Assembly: GCA_038106145.1 (NCBI GenBank)
Contig: JAYODD010000006.1
Coordinates: 30,621-94,620 of the forward strand
Source: Gammaproteobacteria bacterium
GTDB lineage: Bacteria; Pseudomonadota; Gammaproteobacteria; Pseudomonadales; Porticoccaceae
DNA length: 64,000 nucleotides
Direction of reading: 5' to 3'
Shown here: piece by piece, positions 4,407-41,356 of the stretch
How the letters are laid out: each line of letters opens with the position of its first letter
Position numbering within the stretch: position 1 is the first letter of the stretch
Made by a program: the position numbers and the translations under genes
The notes under the pieces: generated by a model
What the model saw: only the letters and a program-made list of their open reading frames with translations
What the model was told of the DNA's origin: nothing
Databases searched by the model: none

Positions 4407-6863
4407 CTATGTGGATGAGGTGGCGTCGCTGTCATTGTGAGTTATGAAAAAACGCTTGAATTCAGCCTCGGGCAGCGGCCGGGAACAATAATACCCCTGA
4501 ATACAATCACATTGCATATCTCCTAGCATTGCCAGCGTACTTGCGTCTTCCACGCCTTCTGCAGTGACCTCCAGACCCAGACTGTGGGCCATATTAATAG
4601 TTGACGCGACAATTATTTGATCCTCCTTGTTAGTGGCAATTTCGGAAATAAACATTCTGTCAATTTTCACCTCGGTTACAGGCAGCCGCCTGAGGTAATT
4701 CATTGACGAATAACCAGAACCGTAATCGTCTATTGATAAAGAAAACCCCATGTTGTGTAAGGCATTGAGAGTATCGAGTGACGATCCTGGTCGCGACATT
4801 TCCTCCGTTTCGGTGACCTCCAGGAATATTTGCGCGGGACTAACACTGTGTGAGTCCACCAGATTCTTTACTTGATCGATAACCCCGCTGTATTGCAGAT
4901 CTTTTACCGACAGATTAACTGCAATGGATAATTTGATACCTTGAGATTGCCAGCGCTCCGATTGTGCCATGGCGGCTTCCAGCGCCCACAGAGTTAAATG
5001 ATTGATATTACCGGTCCGCTCCGCCATCTGGATAAAGTCGCCAGGGAGCAGCAACCCTTTCTTAGGATGATTCCAACGCACTAGCGCCTCGCAGCCCACT
5101 ATTTGTTGAGAGTGAATTTGCAACTTGGGCTGATAATGCAATATAAATTCCCCTTGCCGGAGCCCCAGGCGGAATTCGCGCATCAATGCCAGCAGTGCTG
5201 GCTTGTATGGATCGTACCGGGGATCGTAAATCGCGTAGCGTAAAGGATTATGACGAGCCTCATCGAGAGCGGTTTCAGCTTTGCGCAGCATTGATCGACT
5301 GTTGACACCATGGACTGGATACATCGCCAGCCCCATATATACAGTTATTCCTACATCTGCTGCACCAGTAGTGAATGGAACATCCATACTCTGAAGAACA
5401 CGTTTTACAACTTTATTTATAATAGTTTCATCGGCACCGAGCAAAACCAACACAAATGACTTTCCGGTTAAGCGCGCTTTAAAATCTCCTTTTTTTGTTA
5501 CTGAACGCAAACGTTGGCCAAACTCTGTAATAACTTTGTCACCAACTTCATGCCCGAGCGTATTATTGATATCCGAAAAATGAGCGATATTCATGATCAT
5601 TACAGAAAATTCACAGCGGTTACTGATAAGTTGATCGAGATAGTTTTCCAAGTATTTTCTGTTGGGCAATCCTGTCGCAATATCGTGTAACAATTGATGG
5701 GCAGACTGTTCAGTTCGGACGCGAATATTTTCCATCATACTATTCATTGCATTACCAAGACGGCCAATTTCATCATTGCCCTGTATTTGGACTGGCGCTG
5801 TATAGTCACCTGCGCTGATCCTTTCTACCGCTGAATCAACAGCACGTAGCGGCGTGGTAATAGATCGCGCTATATAAAAACAGCCTAGAATTGTCAGCAC
5901 CAATCCTATCACTGCGAGCACTACCATAAATAAAAAAAGTGGCTGATAAATCGCCAATGCTCGACTCATCGAGAAATAGGTAGCGGCGACTACTGCCCGA
6001 CCGTTGGCCAACTCGTAAAATTTCTGGACTTCGCCTACTGACTCGCCACCATGGATTAGGCGCTCGCCTTCCAAGTCATCCCCATTAACTTTTGTGTCCC
6101 ATTTAGCAAGCAGTTCGCGAAATTTGTCGATATCCGGCTCCTCTGCGGTGCTGGCCGGTAGCGCCCATGATCCATCCGCGAGCCCCGCCGCGAGCGCAAT
6201 CTCCACAGGTAATCGGGATTCGTTCTGAATATTACGTAAATCTTCACTGACGACCAAACGCCCGACGCCTACCCAAAGCCAGACGTTGTGTACCTCCATG
6301 GGGAGAAAAATCATTTGCACTAATTGACCACGATCCATAACAAAGCCACCAGCAGCCCCCCTCACCTTTTCGCCTTTTAGTAAATACAATAAATCGAAAA
6401 TATATTGGGGTTCCATAACCTCCGATTCCACTACACTCCCGCCGCCCTCATTGCTCTCATAAATAATTTTCTGTCGTTCGGATATTACCACCAGCCGATC
6501 TTGCGGTGATAAAATTCGGTTTGACAAAATATACTGATCGAACGATTTTTTTCGATCAGCTATTAAGGCACGCCTGAAGTCGGGATCGCTGATCAACAAA
6601 AAGGCTTTGTCAATCAGCTCACTTTCTTGATTTTTTACCCAATAGTTAATATTTTTTTTTGATTCCACTAATAACTCTTCGCTATTGGCTTTAAAGTAAT
6701 TTTTTGTAGCCGTGTATACCGCCACAAATGTCAACACCTGAATAGCCAAAAATAGTGCGATAAAAAATACCTCGAGCTTGGTTTGAAAGCTCAAGGAACG
6801 AATTTTTGCAATTATTTCTTCAACTGATTTACGCGCGTCCAGCAACTTAGCACCCCCCATCAC
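4407..6863 (-). CDS. membrane sensor protein: periplasmic domain, HAMP, degenerate GGDEF, EAL (probable c-di-GMP phosphodiesterase)
   Basis: 818 aa with two TM segments flanking a periplasmic region of about 250 aa. The HAMP region is (..ISAGDYTAPVQIQGNDEIGRLGNAMN..). The GGDEF position reads LTGKSF. The EAL domain keeps EALVRW, NLS, EVTE, IDDYG, KIDR, AEGVE and QGYY. Confidence 0.85.
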   Translation of the reverse strand: MMGGAKLLDARKSVEEIIAKIRSLSFQTKLEVFFIALFLAIQVLTFVAVYTATKNYFKANSEELLVESKKNINYWVKNQESELIDKAFLLISDPDFRRALIADRKKSFDQYILSNRILSPQDRLVVISERQKIIYESNEGGGSVVESEVMEPQYIFDLLYLLKGEKVRGAAGGFVMDRGQLVQMIFLPMEVHNVWLWVGVGRLVVSEDLRNIQNESRLPVEIALAAGLADGSWALPASTAEEPDIDKFRELLAKWDTKVNGDDLEGERLIHGGESVGEVQKFYELANGRAVVAATYFSMSRALAIYQPLFLFMVVLAVIGLVLTILGCFYIARSITTPLRAVDSAVERISAGDYTAPVQIQGNDEIGRLGNAMNSMMENIRVRTEQSAHQLLHDIATGLPNRKYLENYLDQLISNRCEFSVMIMNIAHFSDINNTLGHEVGDKVITEFGQRLRSVTKKGDFKARLTGKSFVLVLLGADETIINKVVKRVLQSMDVPFTTGAADVGITVYMGLAMYPVHGVNSRSMLRKAETALDEARHNPLRYAIYDPRYDPYKPALLALMREFRLGLRQGEFILHYQPKLQIHSQQIVGCEALVRWNHPKKGLLLPGDFIQMAERTGNINHLTLWALEAAMAQSERWQSQGIKLSIAVNLSVKDLQYSGVIDQVKNLVDSHSVSPAQIFLEVTETEEMSRPGSSLDTLNALHNMGFSLSIDDYGSGYSSMNYLRRLPVTEVKIDRMFISEIATNKEDQIIVASTINMAHSLGLEVTAEGVEDASTLAMLGDMQCDCIQGYYCSRPLPEAEFKRFFITHNDSDATSST

Positions 6864-7061
6864 TGCCTTAATCGCAAATCATTTTTTTCACCCTGAGGAT
6901 AGAATCAGTTCAACTCTACTGATTGTAGCGCACATTTTGCTTATATTGTTTACACCGGTCGGTCCACATAGCCGTTAATCAATTATCACTGTTTAAATAT
7001 TTTTGGCGGAAGTGCTTTGATATCGTTTCGTGTAGCACGTGTAGCCAACACGAAGACGACG

Positions 7062-7772: not shown

Positions 7773-9266
7773 CTAAATGGTAGTTTCAACGCGCATATGG
7801 GGAAACAACAGTACGTCACGGATGGATGGCGAGTCAGTTAACAGCATGACCAGGCGATCGATACCAATTCCCTCGCCAGCCGTCGGCGGCATTCCGTATT
7901 CAAGCGCACGAATATAATCGGCATCGTAATGCATGGCTTCATTATCCCCCGCGTCTTTGTCCCTGGCTTGCGCCATAAAACGCTCGGCCTGATCCTCCGC
8001 ATCGTTCAGCTCGGAAAATCCATTGGCTATTTCCCGTCCGCCCACAAAAAGTTCGAAGCGATCCGTCACTTCGGGGTGATCGTCGTTGCGCCGCGCTAAC
8101 GGCGAAACTTCCGTGGGATATGCGGTAATAAATGTTGGACTCTCCAGGCGATGCTCTACGGTTTTTTCAAAAATTTCGATCTGCACCTTGCCCAGTCCCC
8201 ACGATGGCTGCAATGGAATACCCAGTTTTTCCGCCACCCCGCGGGCGCGCTCGAGTTGATCGAGATCCGCGGCCTTTAGTTGCGGATTAAATTTGAGTAT
8301 CGCATCAAATACCGACAATCGCGCAAATGGTTGTGAAAAATCGTACTCCTTGCCCTGATAGGTAACCGCAGTACTACCAAGCACCTCGCTACAGAGTGCG
8401 CGCAACATGGTTTCTGTCAGTTGCATTAAATCTCGATAATCGGCATATGCCTGATAAAACTCCAGCATGGTGAATTCGGGATTGTGGCGCGGCGACAGGC
8501 CCTCGTTGCGAAAACTACGGTTGATTTCAAACACCCGCTCAAAACCACCTACCACCAGACGCTTGAGATACAGTTCGGGGGCCACCCGCAAATACATCTG
8601 CTGGTCAAGGCTATGATGATGGGTGACGAAGGGGCGCGCAGTTGCACCACCGGGAATAACCTGCATCATCGGGGTTTCCACTTCCATAAAATCATGTTGC
8701 ACGAGGAAGTGGCGAATAAAATCGATAATTTTTGAACGTTGTTGAAACACTTTGCGAGAGTTTTCGTTGACGATCAAATCCACATAGCGTTGTCGATAGC
8801 GGGTCTCCTGATCGGCGAGACCATGATATTTTTCCGGCAGGGGACGCAGAGATTTGGTTAACAACTGGTACCGCTCAAGATTGACGTAAAGGTCCCCTTT
8901 ACCCGACTTGTGCAACACGCCCTCCACGCCCACCAGATCGCCCACGTCCCACTGCCCCCAGGTGTCCTTGATGGTTTTTTGGGCGGTTTTATCCGCGTAT
9001 AACTGCACGCGCCCCGATACGTCCTGCAGCACCATAAACGGCCCACGCCGGGCCATAATGCGGCCGGCTACACTGACCCGATGCGCCAGGTTCTCCAGCT
9101 CTTGCTTACTTTTTTCGCCATAGCTTGCCTGCAGTCTGGACGCGAAATCCGAACGGCGAAACTGGTTGGGAAAGGCATTACCCTGTGCTCTGATCGCCGC
9201 CAGTTTACCGCGGCGCTCGGCAATTAGCTGATTTTCATCCTGCGGCTTTTGGTCCTGATTGCTCAT
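7773..9266 (-). CDS. lysS: lysine--tRNA ligase (class II)
   Basis: 497 aa with class II aaRS motifs (..[20 protein letters not shown].., ..[12 protein letters not shown]..). It lies downstream of prfB, as in many gammaproteobacteria. Confidence 0.95.
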
Positions 9267-9332
9267 TGTCTGTTTTCCAATACCTCATTGTGCAGAGGTG
9301 AATTGTACACGTGGCAGTGGCACCACCACGTT

Positions 9333-10431
9333 CTACAGCCCGGCTTTCAGGCTGGCTTCGATAAAGGGGTCTAGCTTACCATCCAGCACCGCCTGGGTGT
9401 TGCGGGTCTCCACCCCAGTGCGCAAATCCTTGATACGCGCATCGTCGAGCACATAGGACCGAATCTGGCTGCCCCAGCCGATATCGGATTTACTGTCTTC
9501 CACGGACTGTTGCTTTTCCTGACGTTTGAGCATCTCCAGTTCGTACAGCTTGGCTTTTAACATTTTCATACATTTATCGCGGTTCTGGTGCTGGGAACGC
9601 TCACTCTGACACTGCACCACCACGCCAGACGGGACATGGGTAATGCGCACGGCGGAATCAGTTTTATTGACGTGTTGACCACCGGCGCCGCTGGCGCGAT
9701 AGGTGTCGGTGCGCAGATCCGCGGGGTTAATATCAATTTCGATATTGTCGTCGACTTCGGGCGCGACAAAGACCGCGGCAAATGAGGTATGTCGTCGATT
9801 ACCGGAATCAAAAGGCGATTTGCGCACCAGACGATGGACACCCGTCTCCGTGCGCAACCAGCCAAACGCGTACTCCCCCTGAAAGTGTACCGTCGCGCTC
9901 TTTATTCCCGCCACCTCACCGGGAGACACTTCCACCAGATCAGTGGTAAACCCGCTTTCGTCGCCCCAGCGCAGATACATGCGCAACAGCATTTCCGCCC
10001 AGTCCTGGGCTTCAGTGCCGCCCGAGCCCGCCTGAATATCCAGATAGGCGTTGTTGGGGTCCATCTCCCCGGAAAACATGCGACGAAATTCCAGCTGTTC
10101 CAGGCGCGCGGTCAATCCTGAAATGTCTTTTTGCACATCTGCAAGTGCATCCGCGTCCTGATCTTCGGCAATCATTCCCAGCAATTCGCGGGCATCAGTC
10201 ACCCCCGTATGGAGGGCTTCCAGGGTTACGACTACTGCTTCCAGGGCTGAACGCTCGCGTCCCAGTTGTTGGGCGCGCTCTGGATTTTCCCAGACATCAG
10301 GTGCCGCGAGTTCGAGTTCTACCTCGCTGAGCCGTTCTTTTTTGGCATCGTAGTCAAAGATACCCCCTGAGCACGTCGCTGCGCGCCTGTAGATCATCAA
10401 GGGTATTTTTAATCGGGTTAATTTCCAGCAT
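9333..10431 (-). CDS. prfB: peptide chain release factor 2, expressed through a programmed +1 frameshift
   Basis: Frame 0 from the ATG at 10431 reads [25 protein letters not shown] and then meets TGA. The +1 frame continues DYDAKKERL... and contains SPF and GGQ ([10 protein letters not shown]). The total length of 1099 nt equals 3n+1. Confidence 0.95.
10353..10368 (-). promoter_or_regulatory. prfB +1 frameshift site: CTT TGA C preceded by an SD-like AGGGGG
   Basis: The minus strand reads AGG GGG TAT CTT TGA C TAC GAT. This is the canonical RF2 autoregulatory shift site. Confidence 0.9.
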
Positions 10432-10610
10432 ACGAGGACGGTACAGGTTGGGCTAAGTCGCGAATTTTAGCCCATTACTGTTGCTCAGACCATGTGCAGC
10501 AACAACAAATTGACAGCAGCCAGGCCATTTGGATTGCCACCAATACCTTACCGTGCAACGCTGCAAATCCAAATGACCCGCTCCTGTTCCACGGCGGAGT
10601 AGCGCGCCGA

Positions 10611-11003
10611 TCAGGGTAATGTTGGAATCAGCTGCGTGGTGGAGTGCAGCACCGGGCCCAGGTCTATGGCGCCGAGATCGCCAGCCAGGGGACCGGCGTC
10701 GGTAATGCCCAGCACCTCGATGCCCAGCCCGAGCGTCTGAAATCCACCGCCAAAATACTGGTTGCCAACCCCGGTTTGCGCGGCAAAGGACCCGACTCCG
10801 TCGACTATGCTGCCGGCGTTACCAAAAGCACCCCCTGCCCCCATCCCGGAACCACTGCCAAACCCGATGGTGCGGCTCGACATAAATCCATCTTCCGCCG
10901 CACGGCCGTTATCTTCTTCCGCCATGGCGAGGGTAACCCCGTGCAATGCCAAAGCTAATCCCGCGATCTTCACTAGTGTTTTTGTCCCAGTCATACATTT
11001 CAC
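10611..11003 (-). CDS. hypothetical small secreted glycine-rich protein
   Basis: 130 aa with a Sec-type signal peptide (..KIAGLALALHGVTLAMA|EED). The mature part is very Gly-rich (GFGSGSGMGAGGAFGNAGS..YFGGGFQTLGLG..) and has no Cys. It is the last gene of the ECF operon. Confidence 0.6.
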   Translation of the reverse strand: MKCMTGTKTLVKIAGLALALHGVTLAMAEEDNGRAAEDGFMSSRTIGFGSGSGMGAGGAFGNAGSIVDGVGSFAAQTGVGNQYFGGGFQTLGLGIEVLGITDAGPLAGDLGAIDLGPVLHSTTQLIPTLP

Positions 11004-11051
11004 CTCGTCGTAACAGCTAATGCCTGTGTCGTCTGTGCGTGCACAGTGCGC

Positions 11052-11876
11052 TCAATAATGAAAATTGATCCCCACCGCCATCACGTGATTTTCGTAATCG
11101 GTGGCGTCAATATTCGATCGGTTGTCCTTTAGCGCGTAGGAGCCGCTTAGATACCACTGGCTACTCAAACGCTGGGTCGCCTCCACAAAATAAGTATCAG
11201 TCTTCGTTTCAAAATCGGCAGCAGTAGCAAAATCCCTTTGCGTATACGTATAACCGCCGTTGATAAAGGTATTGACCCGCACCTGGTAGCCCAACAGCAC
11301 CCCGGCGCTGGATCCGGTGTAGCTAAAATAATCGAGATCTGCATCGGCATCTTCGATATCGCCCACCAGTTTGATCCACAGTCGTGGGGTCAACTGATTT
11401 TTTATCTCCACGGTGGAGCCAAGGGAATCGGTGTCGCGGGCGCTCTGGTCTGCCTGGCGCTGTCCATTCCTGACGCTGATTTGCGCGGACCAGTCCGCAT
11501 TTAATTGCCGATACAGGCCGCCGGAGACAATCAGCGCCGAGTTATCCAGCACATCGTAGCGATCGTAACGATTGGAGATGGCACCCAGTTGCCCAACAAA
11601 ATACGTCGTTTTCGCCGCATCCAGCGCCGTATAGTACAACACTGATGCCGCTGCACTCACAAACTGGTCGGACTCTTCCTCAGCATCTCTGGCTACGCCA
11701 TTGACGTTGCTGTCGTAACCGGTTCTCACTCCCGCGTTGAAAGCCACTTCCGCCTGGGCAGAGCCGATGGCAAGGCCGAGCCATAACAACAACGATGCAG
11801 TGTTCTTAATGCCGTTATTTCGCCGGGGTGCGTGTCGTAAACTACACATCAAACTACTTCCTCTTTTTTTAAACAA
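11052..11876 (-). CDS. hypothetical outer-membrane beta-barrel protein
   Basis: 274 aa with a signal peptide (..LLLWLGLAIGSAQA|EV). It shows alternating hydrophobic patterns and Asn/Tyr/Gly-rich turns. The C-terminus ..VGINFHY ends in an aromatic residue, like an OMP beta-signal. Confidence 0.6.
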   Translation of the reverse strand: MFKKRGSSLMCSLRHAPRRNNGIKNTASLLLWLGLAIGSAQAEVAFNAGVRTGYDSNVNGVARDAEEESDQFVSAAASVLYYTALDAAKTTYFVGQLGAISNRYDRYDVLDNSALIVSGGLYRQLNADWSAQISVRNGQRQADQSARDTDSLGSTVEIKNQLTPRLWIKLVGDIEDADADLDYFSYTGSSAGVLLGYQVRVNTFINGGYTYTQRDFATAADFETKTDTYFVEATQRLSSQWYLSGSYALKDNRSNIDATDYENHVMAVGINFHY

Positions 11877-11940
11877 TTTTGCTGGTCATTTCCAACCCGG
11901 CCTGACTTCCCCACCGCTTCCGCTGCCAATCCCTGCAACA

Positions 11941-12978
11941 CTACAACGATGGTAAACCCGGGCCGGACACGTTATGCAGCGGCAATTCGCCGAGCCCTCC
12001 TCCTGGCAATCCGCCTGGCAGAGAATCACCCGGGATGGATCCACCACCCGGAACGCCAATTCCCGGCCCCCCGATTCCCCCGGGCAGCCCCGGCCGCGGC
12101 GCGACTGGCAGGCCACGTCCACCAGGTAACAAATCGGGCGTCCGCTCGCGCAGAGTTCCCGGCAGCGCTTCTGTTGCCGGTATGGGATTAGCCAGCATTT
12201 GCTGCTGCGCCGACAGAATATCCGCCACCGAGAACCCCTGCCGCAATTGGTCAGCTATCTGAAACTGCATTTGTTGCATCTGCGCAACCGACAACCCCCG
12301 CGCCAGACTGGTTTCCGTGAGCGCCAACGCCTGTTCCAGCGCCGCGCCATTAAGTAACAGCGTTTCCAGCAACTGCGCGGCGAGCGCCAATTGCTCGCCA
12401 CTATCCACCACGTAGGGTTGCGGCATATGCTGCGCCAGCTGCGTCAGGGGGTTATCCATTGCGTAGCGTCGCGTCAACACCGTGCCCAGGTTTATCAATG
12501 CTTCCCGCACGCTGGCGTTCGCTACCGCTAATCCCGATTTCTGCAGGTCCGCTAATTCCGCGCTCCGCGCACGCAGCGCCTGAGTCCAGGTCTCTGCCAC
12601 TGCGAGAATGACGTCAGCGGGAACCCTTTTCGCCATGCCTTCCAGTATTTTTCCGCGCACCAGCTCCTCCGGTATATCGGCGGCCCGCAGTATCGATATT
12701 TTTTCAATAAAATGACCCGTCGCGTCGGCGTCATAACTGCGCGTCAACGCCAGATCGAGCAGCGCCTCTAACTGCTGTGCATCCGCACCGGCCTGCAACG
12801 CAGCTGCTGCGATCTGCGCGAGCTGAACCTGTTCGGCGCTATCGTCATAGCGCCCAATTTGCTCCACCAGATGGGCGGACATTTCCTGCGCGCCCAACGC
12901 ACTGGCGACCGCCCAGAACCACAACGCCGATCCGCCCATCCAGAAACGTTTCATAATCTTGGTTTCCCTGTTACTCAT
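11941..12978 (-). CDS. hypothetical secreted protein: Ala/Leu/Gln-rich helical body plus a Pro/Gly-rich C-terminal tail
   Basis: 345 aa with a signal-like N-terminus (MKRFWMGGSALWFWAVASALGAQE). The start ATG abuts the anti-sigma stop (TAAATG). The tail reads LPGGRGLPVAPRPGLPGGIGGPGIGVPGGGSIPGDSLPGGLPGGGLG. Confidence 0.6.
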   Translation of the reverse strand: MSNRETKIMKRFWMGGSALWFWAVASALGAQEMSAHLVEQIGRYDDSAEQVQLAQIAAAALQAGADAQQLEALLDLALTRSYDADATGHFIEKISILRAADIPEELVRGKILEGMAKRVPADVILAVAETWTQALRARSAELADLQKSGLAVANASVREALINLGTVLTRRYAMDNPLTQLAQHMPQPYVVDSGEQLALAAQLLETLLLNGAALEQALALTETSLARGLSVAQMQQMQFQIADQLRQGFSVADILSAQQQMLANPIPATEALPGTLRERTPDLLPGGRGLPVAPRPGLPGGIGGPGIGVPGGGSIPGDSLPGGLPGGGLGELPLHNVSGPGLPSL

Positions 12979-13644
12979 TTACAAAACCGTAACCACGGCA
13001 TTGCGCCGGCCGAAATCATCACTCACATGCTGTTCCGCCCGCGGGTCCGTCACGATTGTTTGATCGTCGATCAAAAATGCGTACTGGTAACGACCAGCGG
13101 GCAATGGCAAATCCGCCACCCAGTTACCGTCAATCTGTCTGCGCAACGGAATTTCCTGCACACTACCCCAGCCGTTAAAATCACCGATCAATGCGACTGT
13201 GGTCGCCTGTGGTGCATACAAACTGAAGCGCGCGTGGTGAGCCTGCTCCAGCCCTACAGTTTGCACACCCGCTAACGGCACTGCCGAGTGCTGAATTGTG
13301 GAGGGGGCTGGCAGAGGGTTACCGCCAACCACAACAACCACCAGCAGTGCGACGAAAGACAGTGCGCCCGCCTCCCAACCCAGCAGCGGATGCTCCTCCA
13401 GCCACAGCCGTAGACGGCGACGCAGACCGGGTCGCAAGGGCTCGACGCGGGATACGACCTGCGCGGCAAAATTGTGTGGCACCACGACGTCCGGCAAATT
13501 CACCAACTGCTCCACGCTACGGCCCAGCGCTGTTAACTCCGCCAATTGCGCCTCGTCCAGCGATGCAACAAAATCCGCACGCTGCGCGGGGGACATCTCC
13601 CCTTCAAAATATTCAACCAGAGCTTGATCCCATGCGTCCTTCAC
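12979..13644 (-). CDS. membrane anti-sigma factor with a C-terminal periplasmic CBM48/AMPK-beta-like (glycogen-binding-type) domain
   Basis: 221 aa. The GTG start overlaps the sigma stop (GTGA) and has a GAGGAGGGG SD. It has an N-terminal anti-sigma-like helix region, one TM (ALSFVALLVVVVVGG) and the C-terminal sequence FSLYAPQATTVALIGDFNGW..DGNW..GRYQYAFLIDD..DDFGRRNAVV. Confidence 0.7.
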   Translation of the reverse strand: MKDAWDQALVEYFEGEMSPAQRADFVASLDEAQLAELTALGRSVEQLVNLPDVVVPHNFAAQVVSRVEPLRPGLRRRLRLWLEEHPLLGWEAGALSFVALLVVVVVGGNPLPAPSTIQHSAVPLAGVQTVGLEQAHHARFSLYAPQATTVALIGDFNGWGSVQEIPLRRQIDGNWVADLPLPAGRYQYAFLIDDQTIVTDPRAEQHVSDDFGRRNAVVTVL

Positions 13645-14207
13645 GACATCCCCTCCTCGCAGGCCTGCCGAAACATTTTCCTGGCGCGAAAAGCACGTAT
13701 TTTGGCATTTTCCACGGTAATCCCCAGGATGCGCGCTATGTCCTCGTTGCTGTAGCCTTCTATATGTTTAAGCACCAGCAGCTCCCGGTATTGCTGCGGC
13801 AAGGTTGCCAAAAGATGACGCACACGCTGCTGCGTCTGTTTGTCTTCTACCTGCCGCAGCGGATTCGCGGTCTCCGCTGCCGCTAGCACATCGCCATAGT
13901 CGTCGAGATCGTCGTGTATATCCTGTGCGCCACGGCGGCGCAACACATCGCGACCTCTGTTCAGGGCAATCTGACAGAGCCAGGTGGAAAACTTGCTGCG
14001 TCCGGAGAATTGCGCGAGTTTTTCGTAAGCGTTGACAAATGCCTCCTGGCACACTTCTTCACACATTGCGTAATTACCCAACAGGCGATACACCACGTTA
14101 AACACCGTTTGCTGATAACGCTCCACCAACACGCCGTAGGCCTGTTTCTCCCCATTCAGGCACACTGCGACAATTTCCTGATCAGACAGATGACGCCACG
14201 TGCTCAA
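13641..14207 (-). CDS. ECF-family RNA polymerase sigma factor
   Basis: 188 aa with a TTG start and an AAGGAA SD. Region 2 reads (..AFVNAYEKLAQFSGRSKFSTWLCQIALNRGRDVLRR) and region 4 reads (LPQQYRELLVLKHIEGYSNEDIARILGITVENAKIRAFRARK). Confidence 0.9.
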   Translation of the reverse strand: MSTWRHLSDQEIVAVCLNGEKQAYGVLVERYQQTVFNVVYRLLGNYAMCEEVCQEAFVNAYEKLAQFSGRSKFSTWLCQIALNRGRDVLRRRGAQDIHDDLDDYGDVLAAAETANPLRQVEDKQTQQRVRHLLATLPQQYRELLVLKHIEGYSNEDIARILGITVENAKIRAFRARKMFRQACEEGMS

Positions 14208-14245
14208 TGGGTATTCCTTATAGCCAGTCGGTGATGCTTGTCAGG

Positions 14246-14274
14246 TTAGACGCAGGGTCGCGTGAAAAAGTTAC
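14246..14274 (-). promoter_or_regulatory. candidate ECF-type promoter GTAAC-N17-CGTCTAA upstream of the sigma gene
   Basis: The minus strand reads CCGTAAC TTTTTCACGCGACCCTG CGTCTAA. The -10 element ends 39 nt before the TTG start at 14207. The -35 element overlaps the stop codon of the upstream lipoprotein gene. Confidence 0.5.
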
Positions 14275-14681
14275 GGAATATACAAAATATTATTGCGCCC
14301 GCCGTAGTCATCCGCTGCAATCGGCCGCAGGTTATCCGTACGGTACTCCTGGCCATCAACCAGATAGACATAATGAAAACGTTTGCCGCGCTCCGGCATA
14401 ACCATCAGCAAACGCCAATTACCCGCGCTATCCGGCCCGGTAAGCGCCAGACCCGGCGGTGCCCAGCCATTGAAATCCCCCAACAACGCCACACTCCGAG
14501 CCTGGGGCGCCTGCAATTCAAACTGCACCTGCCGCTCTCCACTCGCTGCCATTGGCGTGCGTTTAGATACGCAGCCGCTGGCAACTATAAGGCATACCAG
14601 CGCTATTATTTTGCTGGCGATAACCGCGGGTCTGCGTGGAATCATAGGTAGTTGTTCATGGCCCTTGCTCGTCATCGACAT
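14271..14681 (-). CDS. lipoprotein with a CBM48/AMPK-beta-like domain, paralogous to the anti-sigma C-terminus
   Basis: The ORF is 136 aa. A more likely start is the ATG at 14645 (MIPRRPAVIASKIIALVCLIVASG|C, lipobox-like). The domain reads FELQAPQARSVALLGDFNGW..AGNW..KRFHYVYLVDG..DDYGGRNNIL. Confidence 0.65.
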   Translation of the reverse strand: MSMTSKGHEQLPMIPRRPAVIASKIIALVCLIVASGCVSKRTPMAASGERQVQFELQAPQARSVALLGDFNGWAPPGLALTGPDSAGNWRLLMVMPERGKRFHYVYLVDGQEYRTDNLRPIAADDYGGRNNILYIP

Positions 14682-14829
14682 AGCCGCAACCCGCCAGGCT
14701 CCGCCCAGGCGGCAGACCCCAGCGATATCGACAGTGAATTTGCCCCGCGATTATACCCCGTCAATATTTTCATTCACCCCACCGAAGCGCGAAAATTGCG
14801 AGGGGTGACAGGAAATATTCGCAAATTGT

Positions 14830-14858
14830 GTAACCAAAATCGCTATACCCCCGTCACA
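14830..14858 (+). promoter_or_regulatory. candidate ECF-type promoter GTAAC-N17-CGTCACA upstream of the divergent gene
   Basis: The plus strand reads TGTAAC CAAAATCGCTATACCCC CGTCACA. It ends 30 nt before the ATG at 14889. The core and spacing match the motif at 14246-14274. Confidence 0.5.
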
Positions 14859-14888
14859 CAGCAGGAACATAAAACCTGGAGAACTATC

Positions 14889-15863
14889 ATGCAACATCAA
14901 TTCAATAAATTATTACTGGCCACAGTTATCAGCGCATCCGTCGTCACCTCCGCGTACGGCGCCACCGATGGCAACGCTGCGGTTGCACTTGACCAGCGCG
15001 CCCAGGCAAGCGCCGACGCCGCACAGGCACTACAGGACTCGCCTGATGTGCCACTGACAACCGAGCAAACCCTGGATACTGCTGCCGACGCGCGGGATCA
15101 GGCCACACAACATATCAGTGCTGCCACCCAGACAGCAGGAACTTTACAACAAGCGTTAACCACCGATCTGGATGGGGCAGATGCACAACTCTCTGCCACG
15201 GCGAATGGCGCCCTGGCTGCGGCGAGCGAACTTTCCGGTGCAGGCGGTAGCGTACAGGAACAAATACAGGGCGACGCCAATCATACTGCCGATGCAGTAA
15301 TCTCAGACTTACGCAGCGCACAAATGACGAATGCTGACGGCACTAGCTCGGCGCGCGCCGGGATTGCCGGCGGCAGCTCAGTGGCAGGAAAGCTATTGCA
15401 AATGGGCCAAACCGCGACCGCAAGCCTGTCTAACCAAACCAGCGCCACCATGCAGGACGAAGTGCGAGGTGCAGACACCGTCGCCAGTGGAGCCGCTGGC
15501 CTATCTCAATCTGTACTGGGCCAGGTGGAATCATCGGAAACCGCCCCGGAGCTCGCGAGTGGACAGGCATTGCCTGAGTTGCCTGTCGACGATGCCCTGC
15601 CAGCAGCACCGGATACCTCACTGCCAACTCCAGAAGTGGCTGTGAATAGTCGCGCACAGGCAGACGTTTCCGCTGGTGCGGGCCTCACCGCGGATGCTCA
15701 ACGTGTCAACCTCAACACCCAGCAACGGATGCAAACGGATGTCGGTTTCAGCAGCGCTGGCAGAGGTAACGCCACCACCACACTGGGCTCCTCTATCGGT
15801 GGCAGTGTGGGCGGCATAACATCCGGGACGAGTGTCCTCGGCACCGGTTCGCTGCTACGCTAA
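14889..15863 (+). CDS. hypothetical secreted low-complexity (Ala/Thr/Ser/Gln/Gly/Asp-rich) protein
   Basis: The ORF is trimmed to the ATG at 14889 (MQHQFNKLLLATVISASVVTSAYG|ATDG), which gives a signal peptide. The mature protein has no Cys, Trp or Tyr and a single Phe. A terminator follows. Confidence 0.6.
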   Translation: MQHQFNKLLLATVISASVVTSAYGATDGNAAVALDQRAQASADAAQALQDSPDVPLTTEQTLDTAADARDQATQHISAATQTAGTLQQALTTDLDGADAQLSATANGALAAASELSGAGGSVQEQIQGDANHTADAVISDLRSAQMTNADGTSSARAGIAGGSSVAGKLLQMGQTATASLSNQTSATMQDEVRGADTVASGAAGLSQSVLGQVESSETAPELASGQALPELPVDDALPAAPDTSLPTPEVAVNSRAQADVSAGAGLTADAQRVNLNTQQRMQTDVGFSSAGRGNATTTLGSSIGGSVGGITSGTSVLGTGSLLR

Positions 15864-15880
15864 TTTTTACGATGGCACAA

Positions 15881-15908
15881 CGGGCAGCTCAGGCTGCCCG
15901 TTTTTTTT
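15881..15908 (+). terminator. Rho-independent terminator
   Basis: CGGGCAGC-tcag-GCTGCCCG followed by TTTTTTTT, 18 nt after the stop at 15863. Confidence 0.85.
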
Positions 15909-15983
15909 AAAAGCATCACTGCCACGAAATTACCCGTTCCCGCCGACGCGTTGTGGCATAAGCTCCGCATCAAAAATTTGTAA

Positions 15984-17624
15984 TTATTGTTGCTCCCGTT
16001 TCGCCGCTTCCCGCAGCCGCAGCTCACGGCGCTGGATTTTTCCGGTGGTGGTCATGGGCAGACTGGTCACAAATTCAAACTCCCGCGGATATTCGTGTTT
16101 GGCAAGGCGTTCCCTCACCATCTGGCGAATATCATTTTCGAGCTCCTCACTGGCTGTGTAACCTTCAGCCAGAATAATAAAGGCTTTAATACTTTCAGTG
16201 CGCACCGGATCGGGCACACCAATCGCCGCCGACATGGCCACCGCCTTGTGGCGCGACAGGGCGTCTTCAATCTCGCCGGGGCCAATACGATAACCCGAGC
16301 TGGTGATCACATCGTCGGAGCGGCCCTTAAACCAGAAATAGCCGTCCTCATCCATAACGCCGTTATCGCCCATCAACAGCCAGTCGCCAATATATTTTTC
16401 GCGGGTGGCTTCGGGGTTATTCCAGTATTCGAGCAACATCACCGGATCGCCCTTGCGAATGCCGATCTGACCCTCCGTACCGGGTGGCAACAATTCACCA
16501 CTGTGTTCGTCAATAATCGCCGCCACGTGTCCCGGAATAGCCTTGCCCAATGAGCCAGCTTTCGCGGGCAACACCTCGGCGCAATTACCCAGTACAAGAT
16601 TGCACTCGGTTTGGCCGTAAGCCTCGTTGATACGCACCCCCAGGGACGCATTAGCCCATTCAAACAACGCTGCGCCAACTGCTTCACCGCCGCTGAATAC
16701 TGAGCGCAACTGTACGTCGTAGCGCTGCATCGCATCGGGCACCTGGCGCATCATTTTTAACATGGTCGGGGTTAGCAACGCGTTGCGCACCCGATGCTTG
16801 GCCAGCATATGGTAGGCCTGTTCCGGATCAAATCCGGGCGCGCGAAATGCCAGTATGGGCACTCCGTAAAACCAGGAAGGAGTGAGAATGTCCATCAACC
16901 CTGCCACCCAGGCCCAGTCCGCCGGTGACCAGTTCAAATCGCCCGGTTGGGGGAAAAAATCATTGCAGTATTCAATGCCTGGCAGGGTGCCAAGCAGGCA
17001 GCGATGAGCGTGCAGAGCGCCCTTGGGATTGCCGGTGGTGCCCGACGTGTAGCAAATAAATGCCGGATCTTCGGCGCGGCTGTTAACCGTACTGAACTGA
17101 TCGGAGCCCTTTTCCAGTATCGTCCAGAAATCTTCACCTCTGCCTTGCGCACCATCGGTCAACAACACTTTTTCCAGCTGCGGCGCCCGCTCCCAGACTT
17201 CCTCCACCTTGGCAAAATTGGCCTGGTCGGTGATCAATATTTTGGCGCCGCTATCGTTCAGGCGATATTCAATGGCATCGGCGCCAAACAGGACCGATGT
17301 CGGACAGGAGATCAGCCCGGCTTTCCAGCAGGCAATATGCGCTATCGCGGTTTCCGGGGCCTGCCCCAGCAGCAATGTCACCCGATCACCGGGTTTGCCG
17401 CCCATCCCAACCAGGGCGTTGGCGAACTGATTGGCGTATTGCTGAATTTTGCGAAAGGTGTATTCCCGCACTTCGCCTGTTAGGGTTTCGTAAATGAGCG
17501 CCACCCGCGCTGGATCGGTGGCGTGTTTGTCCACGCAGTGGTGGGCCATGTTGAAATATTGCGGTACCTTCCAGTGAAACCCGTTGTAGACATCTTCGTA
17601 GGTGTTACCCCTGCTGATCAGCAT
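15984..17624 (-). CDS. AMP-dependent acyl-CoA synthetase/ligase
   Basis: About 546 aa with the AMP-binding motif YTSGTTGNPKG, plus ..GYFWFKGRSDDVI.. and ..LPMTTTGKIQRRELR. The start is set at the ATG at 17624, which has a GGAG SD. The longest ORF begins at a GTG at 17630. Confidence 0.9.
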   Translation of the reverse strand: MLISRGNTYEDVYNGFHWKVPQYFNMAHHCVDKHATDPARVALIYETLTGEVREYTFRKIQQYANQFANALVGMGGKPGDRVTLLLGQAPETAIAHIACWKAGLISCPTSVLFGADAIEYRLNDSGAKILITDQANFAKVEEVWERAPQLEKVLLTDGAQGRGEDFWTILEKGSDQFSTVNSRAEDPAFICYTSGTTGNPKGALHAHRCLLGTLPGIEYCNDFFPQPGDLNWSPADWAWVAGLMDILTPSWFYGVPILAFRAPGFDPEQAYHMLAKHRVRNALLTPTMLKMMRQVPDAMQRYDVQLRSVFSGGEAVGAALFEWANASLGVRINEAYGQTECNLVLGNCAEVLPAKAGSLGKAIPGHVAAIIDEHSGELLPPGTEGQIGIRKGDPVMLLEYWNNPEATREKYIGDWLLMGDNGVMDEDGYFWFKGRSDDVITSSGYRIGPGEIEDALSRHKAVAMSAAIGVPDPVRTESIKAFIILAEGYTASEELENDIRQMVRERLAKHEYPREFEFVTSLPMTTTGKIQRRELRLREAAKREQQ

Positions 17625-40897: not shown

Positions 40898-41356
40898 TCA
40901 CCAACAGTAAGCGGCGGTTTCGGTGGCACCGCCAGTCACACTCTTTACGCCCAGCGAAGACAACTGTAACGTTTGGCAGCGCGTATCGTCCGCCTGGGCC
41001 AACTGGGGCACCGCCTGCAACGTAAAAGCCGTTGCTGTCGCCCCAGCCGCCAATTGTATAATGTAAATGCGACTGCCATCTGCCGCTGGAACAGTCTCGC
41101 CATCGCTACCGATGCCATAAGTTGCGGCAGGATAGCCCAGATCTGTTAACACGGTGGCATAACGTTTATTGTTTACAAAAAACTGTTCCTGGCGGGCCTG
41201 CACTTTAACTAGCTCACCCGCCGCCAAACTACGACGTGTTTTGATGATTTGGTCCCTGTAATTTGGCAACGCCACCGCAACCAAAATACTAATCACCACT
41301 ATCGCTATCATCATTTCGATCAGCGTAAAACCCTGGCTTTTCAATCGGTTGTTCAT
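40898..41356 (-). CDS. pilE: type IV pilin-like protein PilE
   Basis: 152 aa with the prepilin leader and motif MNNRLKSQG|FTLIEMMIAIVVISIL. It is the last gene of the minor-pilin operon. Confidence 0.85.
   Translation of the reverse strand: MNNRLKSQGFTLIEMMIAIVVISILVAVALPNYRDQIIKTRRSLAAGELVKVQARQEQFFVNNKRYATVLTDLGYPAATYGIGSDGETVPAADGSRIYIIQLAAGATATAFTLQAVPQLAQADDTRCQTLQLSSLGVKSVTGGATETAAYCW

Follow-up and report, generated by a model that had tools for sequence, protein, structure and literature searches.

An ECF sigma/anti-sigma cassette with CBM48-like sensor domains and a putative regulon of glycine-rich exported proteins in Porticoccaceae and distant bacterial lineages

The window that we analyzed, a 64,000-nucleotide stretch of contig JAYODD010000006.1 (assembly GCA_038106145.1) from a Porticoccaceae bacterium, contains a module of seven open reading frames (ORFs), P1 to P7, built around an extracytoplasmic function (ECF) sigma factor and its anti-sigma factor. 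On the minus strand, P1 to P6 encode an exported carbohydrate-binding module (CBM) 48-like protein, the sigma factor, the anti-sigma factor, a secreted helical-repeat protein, an outer-membrane beta-barrel, and a small secreted glycine-rich protein, while P7 is a divergent gene for a secreted low-complexity protein. All seven ORFs are present at the coordinates claimed in the original prediction, a note made earlier from the sequence of this stretch. We propose, giving the idea roughly even weight, that the module is an autoregulated ECF sigma/anti-sigma envelope-signaling cassette of a conserved and undescribed type with a small dedicated regulon, the output of which would be a conditioning of the envelope by disordered glycine-rich proteins. 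This proposal builds on the observed gene content, domains, folds, promoter motif and its positions, and co-conservation of the cassette. The regulatory logic, namely a class-I-like anti-sigma factor, an autoregulated ECF promoter, and a small dedicated regulon, is well supported at the sequence level. Protein identities are kept across Porticoccaceae metagenome-assembled genomes (MAGs) at 72-79% for P4, 81-83% for P5, 77-83% for P6, and 61-65% for P7, and P1-P5 are detectable at 35-50% identity in Betaproteobacteria; judging by these identities, the module ORFs are therefore genes under selection and not chance ORFs.

P2 (13641-14207, minus strand) is an ECF (group 4) sigma factor of 188 aa, against an expected ~170-200, with sigma-2 and sigma-4 domains only. 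It was matched by the Pfam models Sigma70_r2 (PF04542, E = 4.6e-17) and Sigma70_r4_2 (PF08281, E = 4.4e-16) and by NCBIfam TIGR02937 (101 bits versus a cut-off of 42.9), and its nearest solved structures are AlgU (6in7), RpoE (1or7), and SigW (5wuq). The adjoining gene, P3 (12979-13644, minus strand), encodes a single-pass anti-sigma factor with a cytoplasmic anti-sigma domain (residues ~1-85), a transmembrane helix (~95-117), and a periplasmic CBM48-like domain (~135-221). The profile of the ~85 N-terminal residues of the P3 family, which comprises 109 homologue clusters, matches the RsiW anti-sigma domain (5wuq_C) with E = 1.1e-6, and none of the zinc ligands of RsiW is found in the N-terminal domain of P3. 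The two genes share a 4-nt GTGA overlap, borne out by their coordinates, and adjoin each other as is usual for an ECF factor and its cognate anti-sigma factor; the pairing is kept in all loci. Moreover, the sequence 5' of the sigma gene, GTAAC(C/T)-N16/17-CGTCT, has the AAC in the -35 element and the CGT in the -10 element of an autoregulatory ECF promoter. With the sigma domains present, the NCBIfam cut-off passed, the RsiW profile matched, and the overlap in place, the earlier reading of this pair as an ECF sigma factor and its anti-sigma factor holds.

The periplasmic domain of P3 scored 42.3 bits with the Pfam model CBM_48 (cut-off 22.4, E = 9.8e-11) and 35.5 bits with AMPK1_CBM (cut-off 26.8). 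A CBM48-like domain is also the only domain of P1 (14271-14681, minus strand), an exported protein and probable lipoprotein (...LIVASGC) that scored 27.9 bits with AMPK1_CBM and 25.8 bits with CBM_48, both above the Pfam cut-offs. The best PDB matches of the CBM48 domains are the CBMs of AMPK beta1 and beta2 (E ~ 2e-6). P1 is 35-40% identical to the C-terminal domain of P3, a similarity that marks the domains of the two proteins as paralogues. The earlier statement that the proteins belong to no recognizable family was thus too strong for P1 and P3, whereas it stands for P4, P6, and P7. Likewise, P1 can be called a lipoprotein in Porticoccaceae and in two distant lineages, where the lipobox is present, but not in Betaproteobacteria, where it has only a plain signal peptide.

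The sugar site of AMPK beta1 comprises residues W100, K126, W133, L146, and N150. The equivalent residues are W, A, I, F, and N in the window's P3 and W, V, Y, Y, and N in its P1. Among 76 P3-type and 34 P1-type domains aligned to the AMPK beta1 CBM, W100 and N150 are kept in 100%, W133 in ~90%, and K126 in 0%. A carbohydrate ligand is therefore plausible for the family, judged by its fold and kept residues, since W100 and N150 are invariant and W133 is nearly so, but it is weakened for the window's own P3 and P1 domains, which have Ile and Tyr at the W133 position. The glycan-type trigger suggested in the original prediction would thus be based on the CBM48 fold, and the aromatic platform of the domain could equally bind Gly/Pro-rich chains. 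Two further observations concern this domain. A glycogen phosphorylase gene lies directly 3' of a distant module (L022, 7239-9293, plus strand), a single case among the neighborhoods examined that is intriguing in view of the CBM48 sensor. In another locus (L024, 3315-4529, plus strand), the anti-sigma gene and the P4-like gene are separated by a gene for a 404-aa protein that resembles a barrel in its N-terminal part and ends in a CBM48 domain; as a hint only, this protein may combine the roles of P5 and P1 by fusion, and no homology between its N-terminal part and P5 was detectable by hhalign (E = 0.28) or hmmsearch (not significant).

The cassette recurs well outside the strain. Close relatives are few, eight for P4 and 12 for P5 among 5.8 billion clustered proteins, and the window-type module belongs to Porticoccaceae MAGs. 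A profile of the P4 helical domain retrieved 148 representative clusters (50% identity) at E < 1e-3, of which 12 had E < 1e-30; the clusters that were looked up are all labeled hypothetical, and Ca. Eisenbacteria is the source of one. The six cassette genes, at 35-50% identity and with their order retained, were found in Gallionellaceae, Thiobacillus, Sulfuriferula, and Burkholderiales, in unrelated genomic contexts, including the complete genome of cultured Sulfuriferula plumbiphila (AP021884.1, ~1.293-1.312 Mb, locus L017), in which TPL01_27820 is the anti-sigma gene; the Betaproteobacterial hosts include iron and sulfur oxidizers. More distant relatives show the order P1-CBM48, sigma, anti-sigma-CBM48, P4-like gene, genes for small Gly-tailed proteins, and P5 homologue, and the cassette order is also present in Ca. 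Eisenbacteria.

A census of 80 metagenome loci was counted over those loci with enough flanking sequence. The anti-sigma CBM domain directly preceded P4 in 64 of 65 loci, the P1-sigma-anti-sigma trio was complete with P1 first in 18 of 18, and a P5 homologue lay downstream in 19 of 22, the other three having no barrel. Since the cassette recurs at these frequencies, its genes are co-conserved outside the strain, in Porticoccaceae, Betaproteobacteria, Ca. Eisenbacteria, and the metagenome loci, which answers the gene-neighborhood check proposed with the original prediction. The idea of a self-contained, sigma-controlled module is likewise borne out, as the order is kept across distant lineages while the flanks change and a promoter motif is shared. 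No recurrent functional partner was found among the twenty genes flanking distant modules. In one distant metagenomic module (L107, 2295-3194, minus strand), the cassette adjoins prfB, as it does in the window, and P5 there lies upstream of P1. The assertion that no characterized system has this composition also stood up to searches of Pfam, NCBIfam, PADLOC, PHROGs, PDB sequences and folds, and the literature; in the literature searched (anti-sigma factors with CBM48, glycogen-binding, early-set domain, or AMPK1_CBM, and Sulfuriferula ECF factors), no description of the cassette was found.

When the spacers upstream of the sigma genes were aligned, the motif TGTAAC(C/T)-N16/17-CGTCT(C/T)A appeared in every locus, including the very distant ones, and the sigma promoter is equally placed in every related locus, with L022 and L026 among the distant examples. 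In the window, the predicted ECF-type promoter of the sigma operon, GTAACTTTTTCACGCGACCCTGCGTC(T), occupies 14249-14274 on the minus strand, with a -35 element that overlaps the TAA stop codon of P1. A second copy, GTAACCAAAATCGCTATACCCCCGTC, at 14830-14855 on the plus strand ends 34 nt 5' of the P7 start codon (ATG), with a GGAGA ribosome-binding site after it; a copy at the same position precedes P7 in the Porticoccaceae loci L002, L007, and L009. The core GTAAC-N16/17-CGTC occurs four times in the 64-kb window versus 0.65 expected, and the two matches that carry the extended consensus are those before sigma and P7. The other two, at 40966 and 60536, were treated as chance because they have neither the CGTCT extension nor C/T after GTAAC.

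The enrichment is also seen in 364 kb of metagenome loci, where 67 motif matches were found versus 6.1 in shuffles. Of these 67 sites, 38 are directly 5' of sigma, a position for which 37 loci had sufficient sequence, 16 fall in the interval from P4 to P5, and 13 are at other positions. For nine of the 13, a downstream ORF could be assigned, and each of these ORFs encodes an exported Gly/Met/His-rich protein. The Betaproteobacterial loci have additional copies in front of P5, of P6, of the gene for a ~134-aa helical protein, and of a short P4 paralogue. Based on the copies of the motif and their positions, P2-P3-P4-P5-P6 and P7 would form a sigma-dependent regulon.

P1 itself lies 5' of the autoregulated sigma promoter. 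The original prediction described a minus-strand operon led by P1; the gene order agrees with this, but the conserved ECF-type promoter overlaps the P1 stop codon ahead of sigma, and to call P1 the leading gene of that operon is therefore too simple. Upstream of P1, a candidate promoter of the housekeeping type is located at 14750-14777 on the minus strand, with a -35 element GTGAAT (14777-14772), a 16-nt spacer, and a -10 element TATAAT (14755-14750). The consensus scanner did not call it because of the weak -35 element. The block upstream of P1, GGGGTGAATGAAAAT...GTATAATCG, is conserved in the Porticoccaceae loci L007, L009, and L002, and P1 probably has its own housekeeping-type promoter. 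As a separate observation, the GTAAC of the sigma -35 element (14270-14274) contains the TAA stop of P1, so the end of P1 and the autoregulated promoter are fused, as they also are in L001 and L016.

P4 (11941-12978, minus strand) lies directly 3' of the anti-sigma gene in 64 of 65 census loci, with a junction that varies across lineages from a 4-nt overlap to a gap of 0-11 nt. In the window, the TAAATG junction between P3 and P4 reported earlier is real in the sequence, but the abutting start is uncertain because gene callers begin the P4 homologues at Met9 (337 aa); an AGGGA ribosome-binding site precedes Met9, at 12954, which is the likely true start. The description of P4 as a secreted helical protein with a Pro/Gly tail agrees with its AlphaFold model, in which residues 30-265 have a predicted local distance difference test score (pLDDT) of ~90 and form 12-13 helices in helical-hairpin repeats, followed by a tail of ~80 residues with pLDDT <50 that contains 28% Gly and 21% Pro. 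A Foldseek search of the PDB with this model returned no fold match at E < 0.001, and its best matches, designed repeat proteins and the TALE-like BurrH (E = 0.017, TM-score ~0.2), were dismissed as meaningless. A search of PDB sequences with the P4 profile found nothing, the repeats match no TPR or Sel1 model, and P4, P6, and P7 gave no family in Pfam, NCBIfam, PADLOC, or PHROGs. Ten distant P4 relatives gave only subthreshold noise in Pfam, plus unrelated TPR/CHAT architectures for the weakest multi-stretch matches. The family shares the signature LP..V.D+I.EG(L/M)AK.VP. In 18 of 18 diverse relatives, the disordered tail has a Gly content of 19-46%; how much Pro, Met, His, and Arg it contains depends on the lineage, and glycine richness is the sole universal property of the tails. 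The model thus suggests that P4 is a novel helical-repeat fold, secreted by prediction.

P5 (11052-11876, minus strand; likely start Met10 at 11849, from which its homologues are called) had been read as barrel-like, and its confident predicted structure (mean pLDDT 86) agrees with that reading, showing a 12-stranded outer-membrane barrel with the first strand right after the signal peptide and a C-terminal ...INFHY. The model has no periplasmic, plug, or coiled-coil domain, and its loops are short. Foldseek returned only generic outer-membrane barrels (OmpG, NalP/EspP, COG4313, CymA) with TM-scores of 0.4-0.6 and ~10% identity, and no specific transporter family could therefore be named. The matches to BBP2_2 (PF10082; 21.1 bits, below the cut-off of 23.7) and to TIGR03016 (17.9 versus 90.85) span the last ~85 residues only. 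Homologues of P5 were recognized in distant modules, including L022 (hhalign 99.4%) and L026 (E = 1.6e-29).

The remaining products are low in complexity. P6 (10611-11003, minus strand) contains 25% Gly and the conserved motifs GFGSG(S/T)G(M/I)G.GG, FGGGF.Q, and G(A/S)GPL, and inspection of its sequence found no amyloid-type or imperfect strand-loop-strand repeats. Its homologues follow P5 in all Porticoccaceae and Betaproteobacterial loci and have their own ECF promoter copy in the latter. P7 (14889-15863, plus strand) encodes a 324-aa secreted protein composed of 19% Ala, 11% each of Ser, Thr, and Gly, 9% Gln, and 8% Asp. Its homologues, at the identities given above, occur in Porticoccaceae loci only, and P7 is probably a lineage-specific member of the regulon. 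Other lineages have analogous extra low-complexity cargo genes behind the same ECF promoter. The additions seen in other modules are short P4 paralogues that end in (AGMGGG)n or (GSGMGG)n, small proteins of high charge whose basic ends are rich in Gly, proteins with His/Met repeats, and MxxM-rich lipoproteins. Small charged Gly-tailed proteins or short P4 paralogues occupy the gap between P4 and P5 or follow the cassette. Because the cargo of other lineages is Met/His-rich, it could plausibly bind metals or scavenge oxidants, and its composition hints at metal or oxidant buffering in those modules.

In Betaproteobacteria, an extra short P4-like protein is encoded behind its own ECF promoter; its signal peptide precedes three helical repeats of the G(V/I/M)P type, and its long tail consists of (AGMGGG)n or (AGMGAS)n. 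The gene is located at 10601-11200 in L011, 10835-11533 in L013, 10873-11559 in L014, 12772-13587 in L017, and ~5410-6080 in L016. Several of these modules also encode, behind the same promoter, the ~134-aa helical protein, which has no signal peptide (L016 was not searched for it). In the S. plumbiphila locus L017, a P6 homologue at ~11660-12000 on the plus strand (MNIKLVVSAAV...GFGSGTGMGAGG...LTNPY) is uncalled in the record, and an 88-aa ORF on the opposite strand (11639-11905), probably spurious, is called in its place.

In the mechanism that we propose, P3 would hold P2 at the inner membrane through its RsiW-like, zinc-free anti-sigma domain and would monitor the periplasm with its CBM48-like beta-sandwich domain. 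P1, an exported paralogue of the sensor domain, would be present before induction because it is expressed from its own promoter, and could act as a co-sensor or as a competitor for the same ligand. A signal that inactivates P3 would allow P2 to direct RNA polymerase to TGTAAC(C/T)-N16/17-CGTCT promoters, with a resulting rise in the P2-P3-P4-P5-P6 transcript and, divergently, in P7. The products would be non-enzymatic, comprising the periplasmic helical-repeat protein P4, the minimal barrel P5, and the Gly- or Ala-rich low-complexity exported proteins P6 and P7. The response would load the periplasm and outer membrane with disordered Gly-rich conditioning proteins, which could act as hydrophilin-like buffers. 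P4, presumably coupled translationally to the anti-sigma gene, may pair with the CBM48 domains, serving as a feedback ligand or playing a part like that of RseB, and P1, P3, and P4 would make up the sensing and feedback part. Sigma release, regulon membership, ligand, and physiological role are the steps that we infer in this scheme.

Several points weigh against this proposal. Conditioning by disordered proteins may describe a composition rather than a demonstrated activity, and regulon membership would be derived solely from motif position. P4 and P5 could belong to the sensor instead of the outputs. Met/His enrichment is absent from the window's own products, with Met at 0-2% and His at ~1% in the P4 tail, P6, and P7, and the sugar site is altered, with Ile and Tyr at the W133 equivalent of P3 and P1 and K126 kept nowhere in the family. 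In addition, the ECF group of P2 may already have an entry in the ECF classification, though one not backed by functional study; the paper on that classification (Casas-Pastor 2021) names neither CBM48 nor the TGTAAC...CGTCT motif in its main text.

A more tentative extension, which we consider unlikely, treats the module as an envelope homeostat. Outer- and inner-membrane-anchored CBM48-like domains would read the amount or state of periplasmic Gly-rich disordered proteins through an aromatic platform that binds Gly/Pro chains and not glucan, and the sigma factor would adjust a protein gel that buffers metals, oxidants, or water stress, with P4 as a new helical-repeat fold. At the same low level of confidence, the proteins read out may be the P4 tail, P6, P7, and their lineage-specific Met/His-rich equivalents.

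Of the alternatives, the one that survives best, to which we assign a low probability, is a trans-envelope integrity sensor. P1 as an outer-membrane lipoprotein, P5, P4 as a periplasmic connector, and P3 would form the sensing apparatus, leaving only P6 and P7 as outputs; by analogy to RcsF/outer-membrane protein/IgaA or FecA/FecR, the CBM48-like domains would meet each other or P4. Such a device would fit a P1 that appears to be transcribed independently of the ECF promoter and, by its lipobox, to be lipidated in three separate lineages, as well as the paralogous domains of P1 and P3 in every lineage, the constant coupling of P4 to the anti-sigma gene, and the L024 protein, if it is a P5-P1 fusion. 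However, no homology to P5 could be detected in the N-terminal part of the latter, P1 lacks a lipobox in Betaproteobacteria, three of 22 loci have no P5, and P5 has its own ECF promoter in Betaproteobacteria, which is expected of an output.

Secretion of a surface fiber or matrix, as proposed in the original prediction, seems improbable to us. In that scheme, P5 would export P6, and perhaps P7 and the P4 tail, in an unfolded state, for assembly outside the cell in the manner of curli or Fap. The 12-stranded barrel does adjoin the conserved Gly-rich P6, both with their own ECF promoters in Betaproteobacteria, and the P5 homologue of L022 has a Gly-rich insertion resembling P6 (FGFSGKGNGQGGYTGSGSGSGSG). 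However, the short loops of P5, its generic barrel matches, and its lack of a periplasmic, plug, or coiled-coil domain speak against such export, as does a P6 without strand-loop-strand repeats. Moreover, no CsgG/E/F, FapD/F, DUF560, or TPR partner was found in Pfam and NCBIfam scans, and some modules keep P4 without a barrel.

The least probable of the alternatives, in our view, is a periplasmic defense against soft metals (Cu/Ag) or oxidants (HOCl), in which Met/His-rich peptides would be sacrificial or chelating, as in SigF-NrsF-MrpX or PcoE/SilE. The Met/His-rich P4 tails and cargo of many modules, with (AGMGGG)n and HMTGTVTPGSHTG repeats, 21% His in the Eisenbacteria tail, and MxxM-rich lipoproteins behind the same promoter, would suit this role, as would hosts that include metal- and sulfide-oxidizing bacteria and the precedent of an ECF-controlled periplasmic Met-rich scavenger (PMC4436054); against it stand the low Met and His of the window's own P4 tail, P6, and P7, the absence of a linked msrP/yedY, cop, or cus gene from the neighborhoods examined, an anti-sigma factor unrelated to NrsF, and a universal tail property that is Gly richness and not Met/His. 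Autotransporter, FecIRA, phage, and defense origins were also considered and rejected.

The surroundings of the module are those claimed earlier, with prfB-lysS on one side and an AMP-binding acyl-CoA synthetase gene, accompanied by a short-chain dehydrogenase gene, on the other. The GC content of the module is 0.53-0.63, with no contrast to the surroundings, and an Rfam scan of 9000-17000 found no RNA family. The clean terminator reported after P7 was located at 15879-15902 (plus strand) as a 10-bp stem with seven GC pairs, a 4-nt loop, and a T8 tail, and a search for a convincing intrinsic terminator after P6 found none. In prfB, a classical programmed +1 frameshift site, CTT TGA C, preceded by a Shine-Dalgarno-like AGGGGG, lies at ~10345-10431 (minus strand), and the listed prfB ORF (9333-10400) therefore lacks the first ~25 codons. 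Farther away, the GC content falls to 0.376 at 6500-6999, versus ~0.52-0.56 around it, within the part of a gene (4407-6863, minus strand) that encodes the N-terminal sensor region of an 818-aa HAMP-GGDEF-EAL protein; this gene is also present in related Porticoccaceae loci.

ECF sigma factors are among the largest families of bacterial signaling proteins, and most groups have no known signal or output. The present cassette is now well defined, with its promoter motif, putative regulon members, and core and accessory genes mapped. Its hosts belong to two or more classes of Proteobacteria and to Ca. Eisenbacteria and include many organisms from sediment, wetland, and groundwater, and it is directly testable because it occurs in the cultured, fully sequenced S. 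plumbiphila. Its predicted output is unusual in containing no enzymes and instead a helical-repeat protein without structural relative, a minimal barrel, and disordered Gly-rich exported proteins. What appears to be new, from sequence comparison and predicted structures, is the combination of ECF signaling with a sensor of a new type, a partner protein of new fold, and a regulon of disordered proteins that are not enzymes. Working out its function would add a type of sensor, a periplasmic CBM48-like domain duplicated as a separate exported protein, and a class of envelope effector, and would clarify how the periplasm is protected in iron-, sulfur-, and metal-associated bacteria.

Among known systems, the cassette, which is known from sequence alone, resembles SigW-RsiW and RpoE-RseA-RseB in its overlapping, co-transcribed sigma and anti-sigma genes and autoregulated sigma factor. 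P2 is nearest to AlgU, RpoE, and SigW, and the N-terminal profile of P3 matches RsiW; just as rseB follows rseA, the gene for a periplasmic protein directly follows the anti-sigma gene. However, P3 lacks the zinc ligands of RsiW, its periplasmic sensor is CBM48-like and not RseA_C or the RsiW ectodomain, and no RseB/MucB domain was found here by Pfam. The cassette also differs from the SigW and RpoE systems in P1, which always accompanies it as another, exported version of the sensor domain, and in its promoter, TGTAAC(C/T)...CGTCT. The RsgI anti-sigma factors of cellulolytic clostridia (SigI-RsgI) carry extracellular CBMs, and they share with P3 the use of a CBM fold outside the cytoplasm as the sensor of a membrane anti-sigma factor. 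In contrast to the cassette, these Gram-positive systems have a SigI-type sigma factor and an RsgI_N domain, which was not found here by Pfam; their CBMs, of the CBM3 type, recognize cellulose or xylan outside the cell, and glycoside hydrolases make up their regulon, whereas the cassette regulon includes no enzymes and the window's P3 and P1 have an incomplete sugar site.

The SigF-NrsF-MrpX system mediates the hypochlorite response of Azospira suillum through the ECF-controlled periplasmic Met-rich scavenger MrpX (PMC4436054). It likewise has a small ECF regulon with an exported, low-complexity, sacrificial protein as main product (PMC4436054), comparable to the Met-rich cargo of related modules. 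NrsF is, however, a multi-pass DUF1109 anti-sigma factor, whereas P3 is a single-pass CBM48 protein; the system also needs a linked methionine sulfoxide reductase (MsrP/YedY), no gene for which is linked here, and the window's cargo is only 0-2% Met. An ECF sigma factor genetically tied to an outer-membrane barrel protein is also seen in SigX-CfrX-CmpX-OprF, which represents ECF102 (PMC7826278), and in FecI-FecR-FecA. P5, with its minimal barrel of 12 strands, resembles neither OprF/OmpA nor a TonB-dependent transducer, and no FecR, mechanosensitive-channel, or TonB-box component was found here by Pfam, NCBIfam, or Foldseek.

Three further models were weighed and rejected as well. For BBP2_2/PEP-CTERM-exosortase, P5 scored below both cut-offs, the neighborhoods contain no exosortase, and P4, P6, and P7 lack a C terminus with PEP plus a transmembrane segment. 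The hallmarks of Fap and curli are a CsgG-type lipoprotein channel or FapF, with its coiled coil and plugged barrel, accessory factors, and a repeat-bearing amyloid subunit; no Csg or Fap match was obtained in Pfam or NCBIfam, the first P5 strand begins after the signal peptide, and P6 has no repeats. The Slam/type XI system uses a 14-stranded DUF560 barrel with an N-terminal TPR domain and a lipoprotein substrate encoded nearby, and P5 has 12 strands and neither DUF560 nor TPR. Overall, the module departs from each of its closest known systems in their defining features, and what it shares of these is generic ECF membership.

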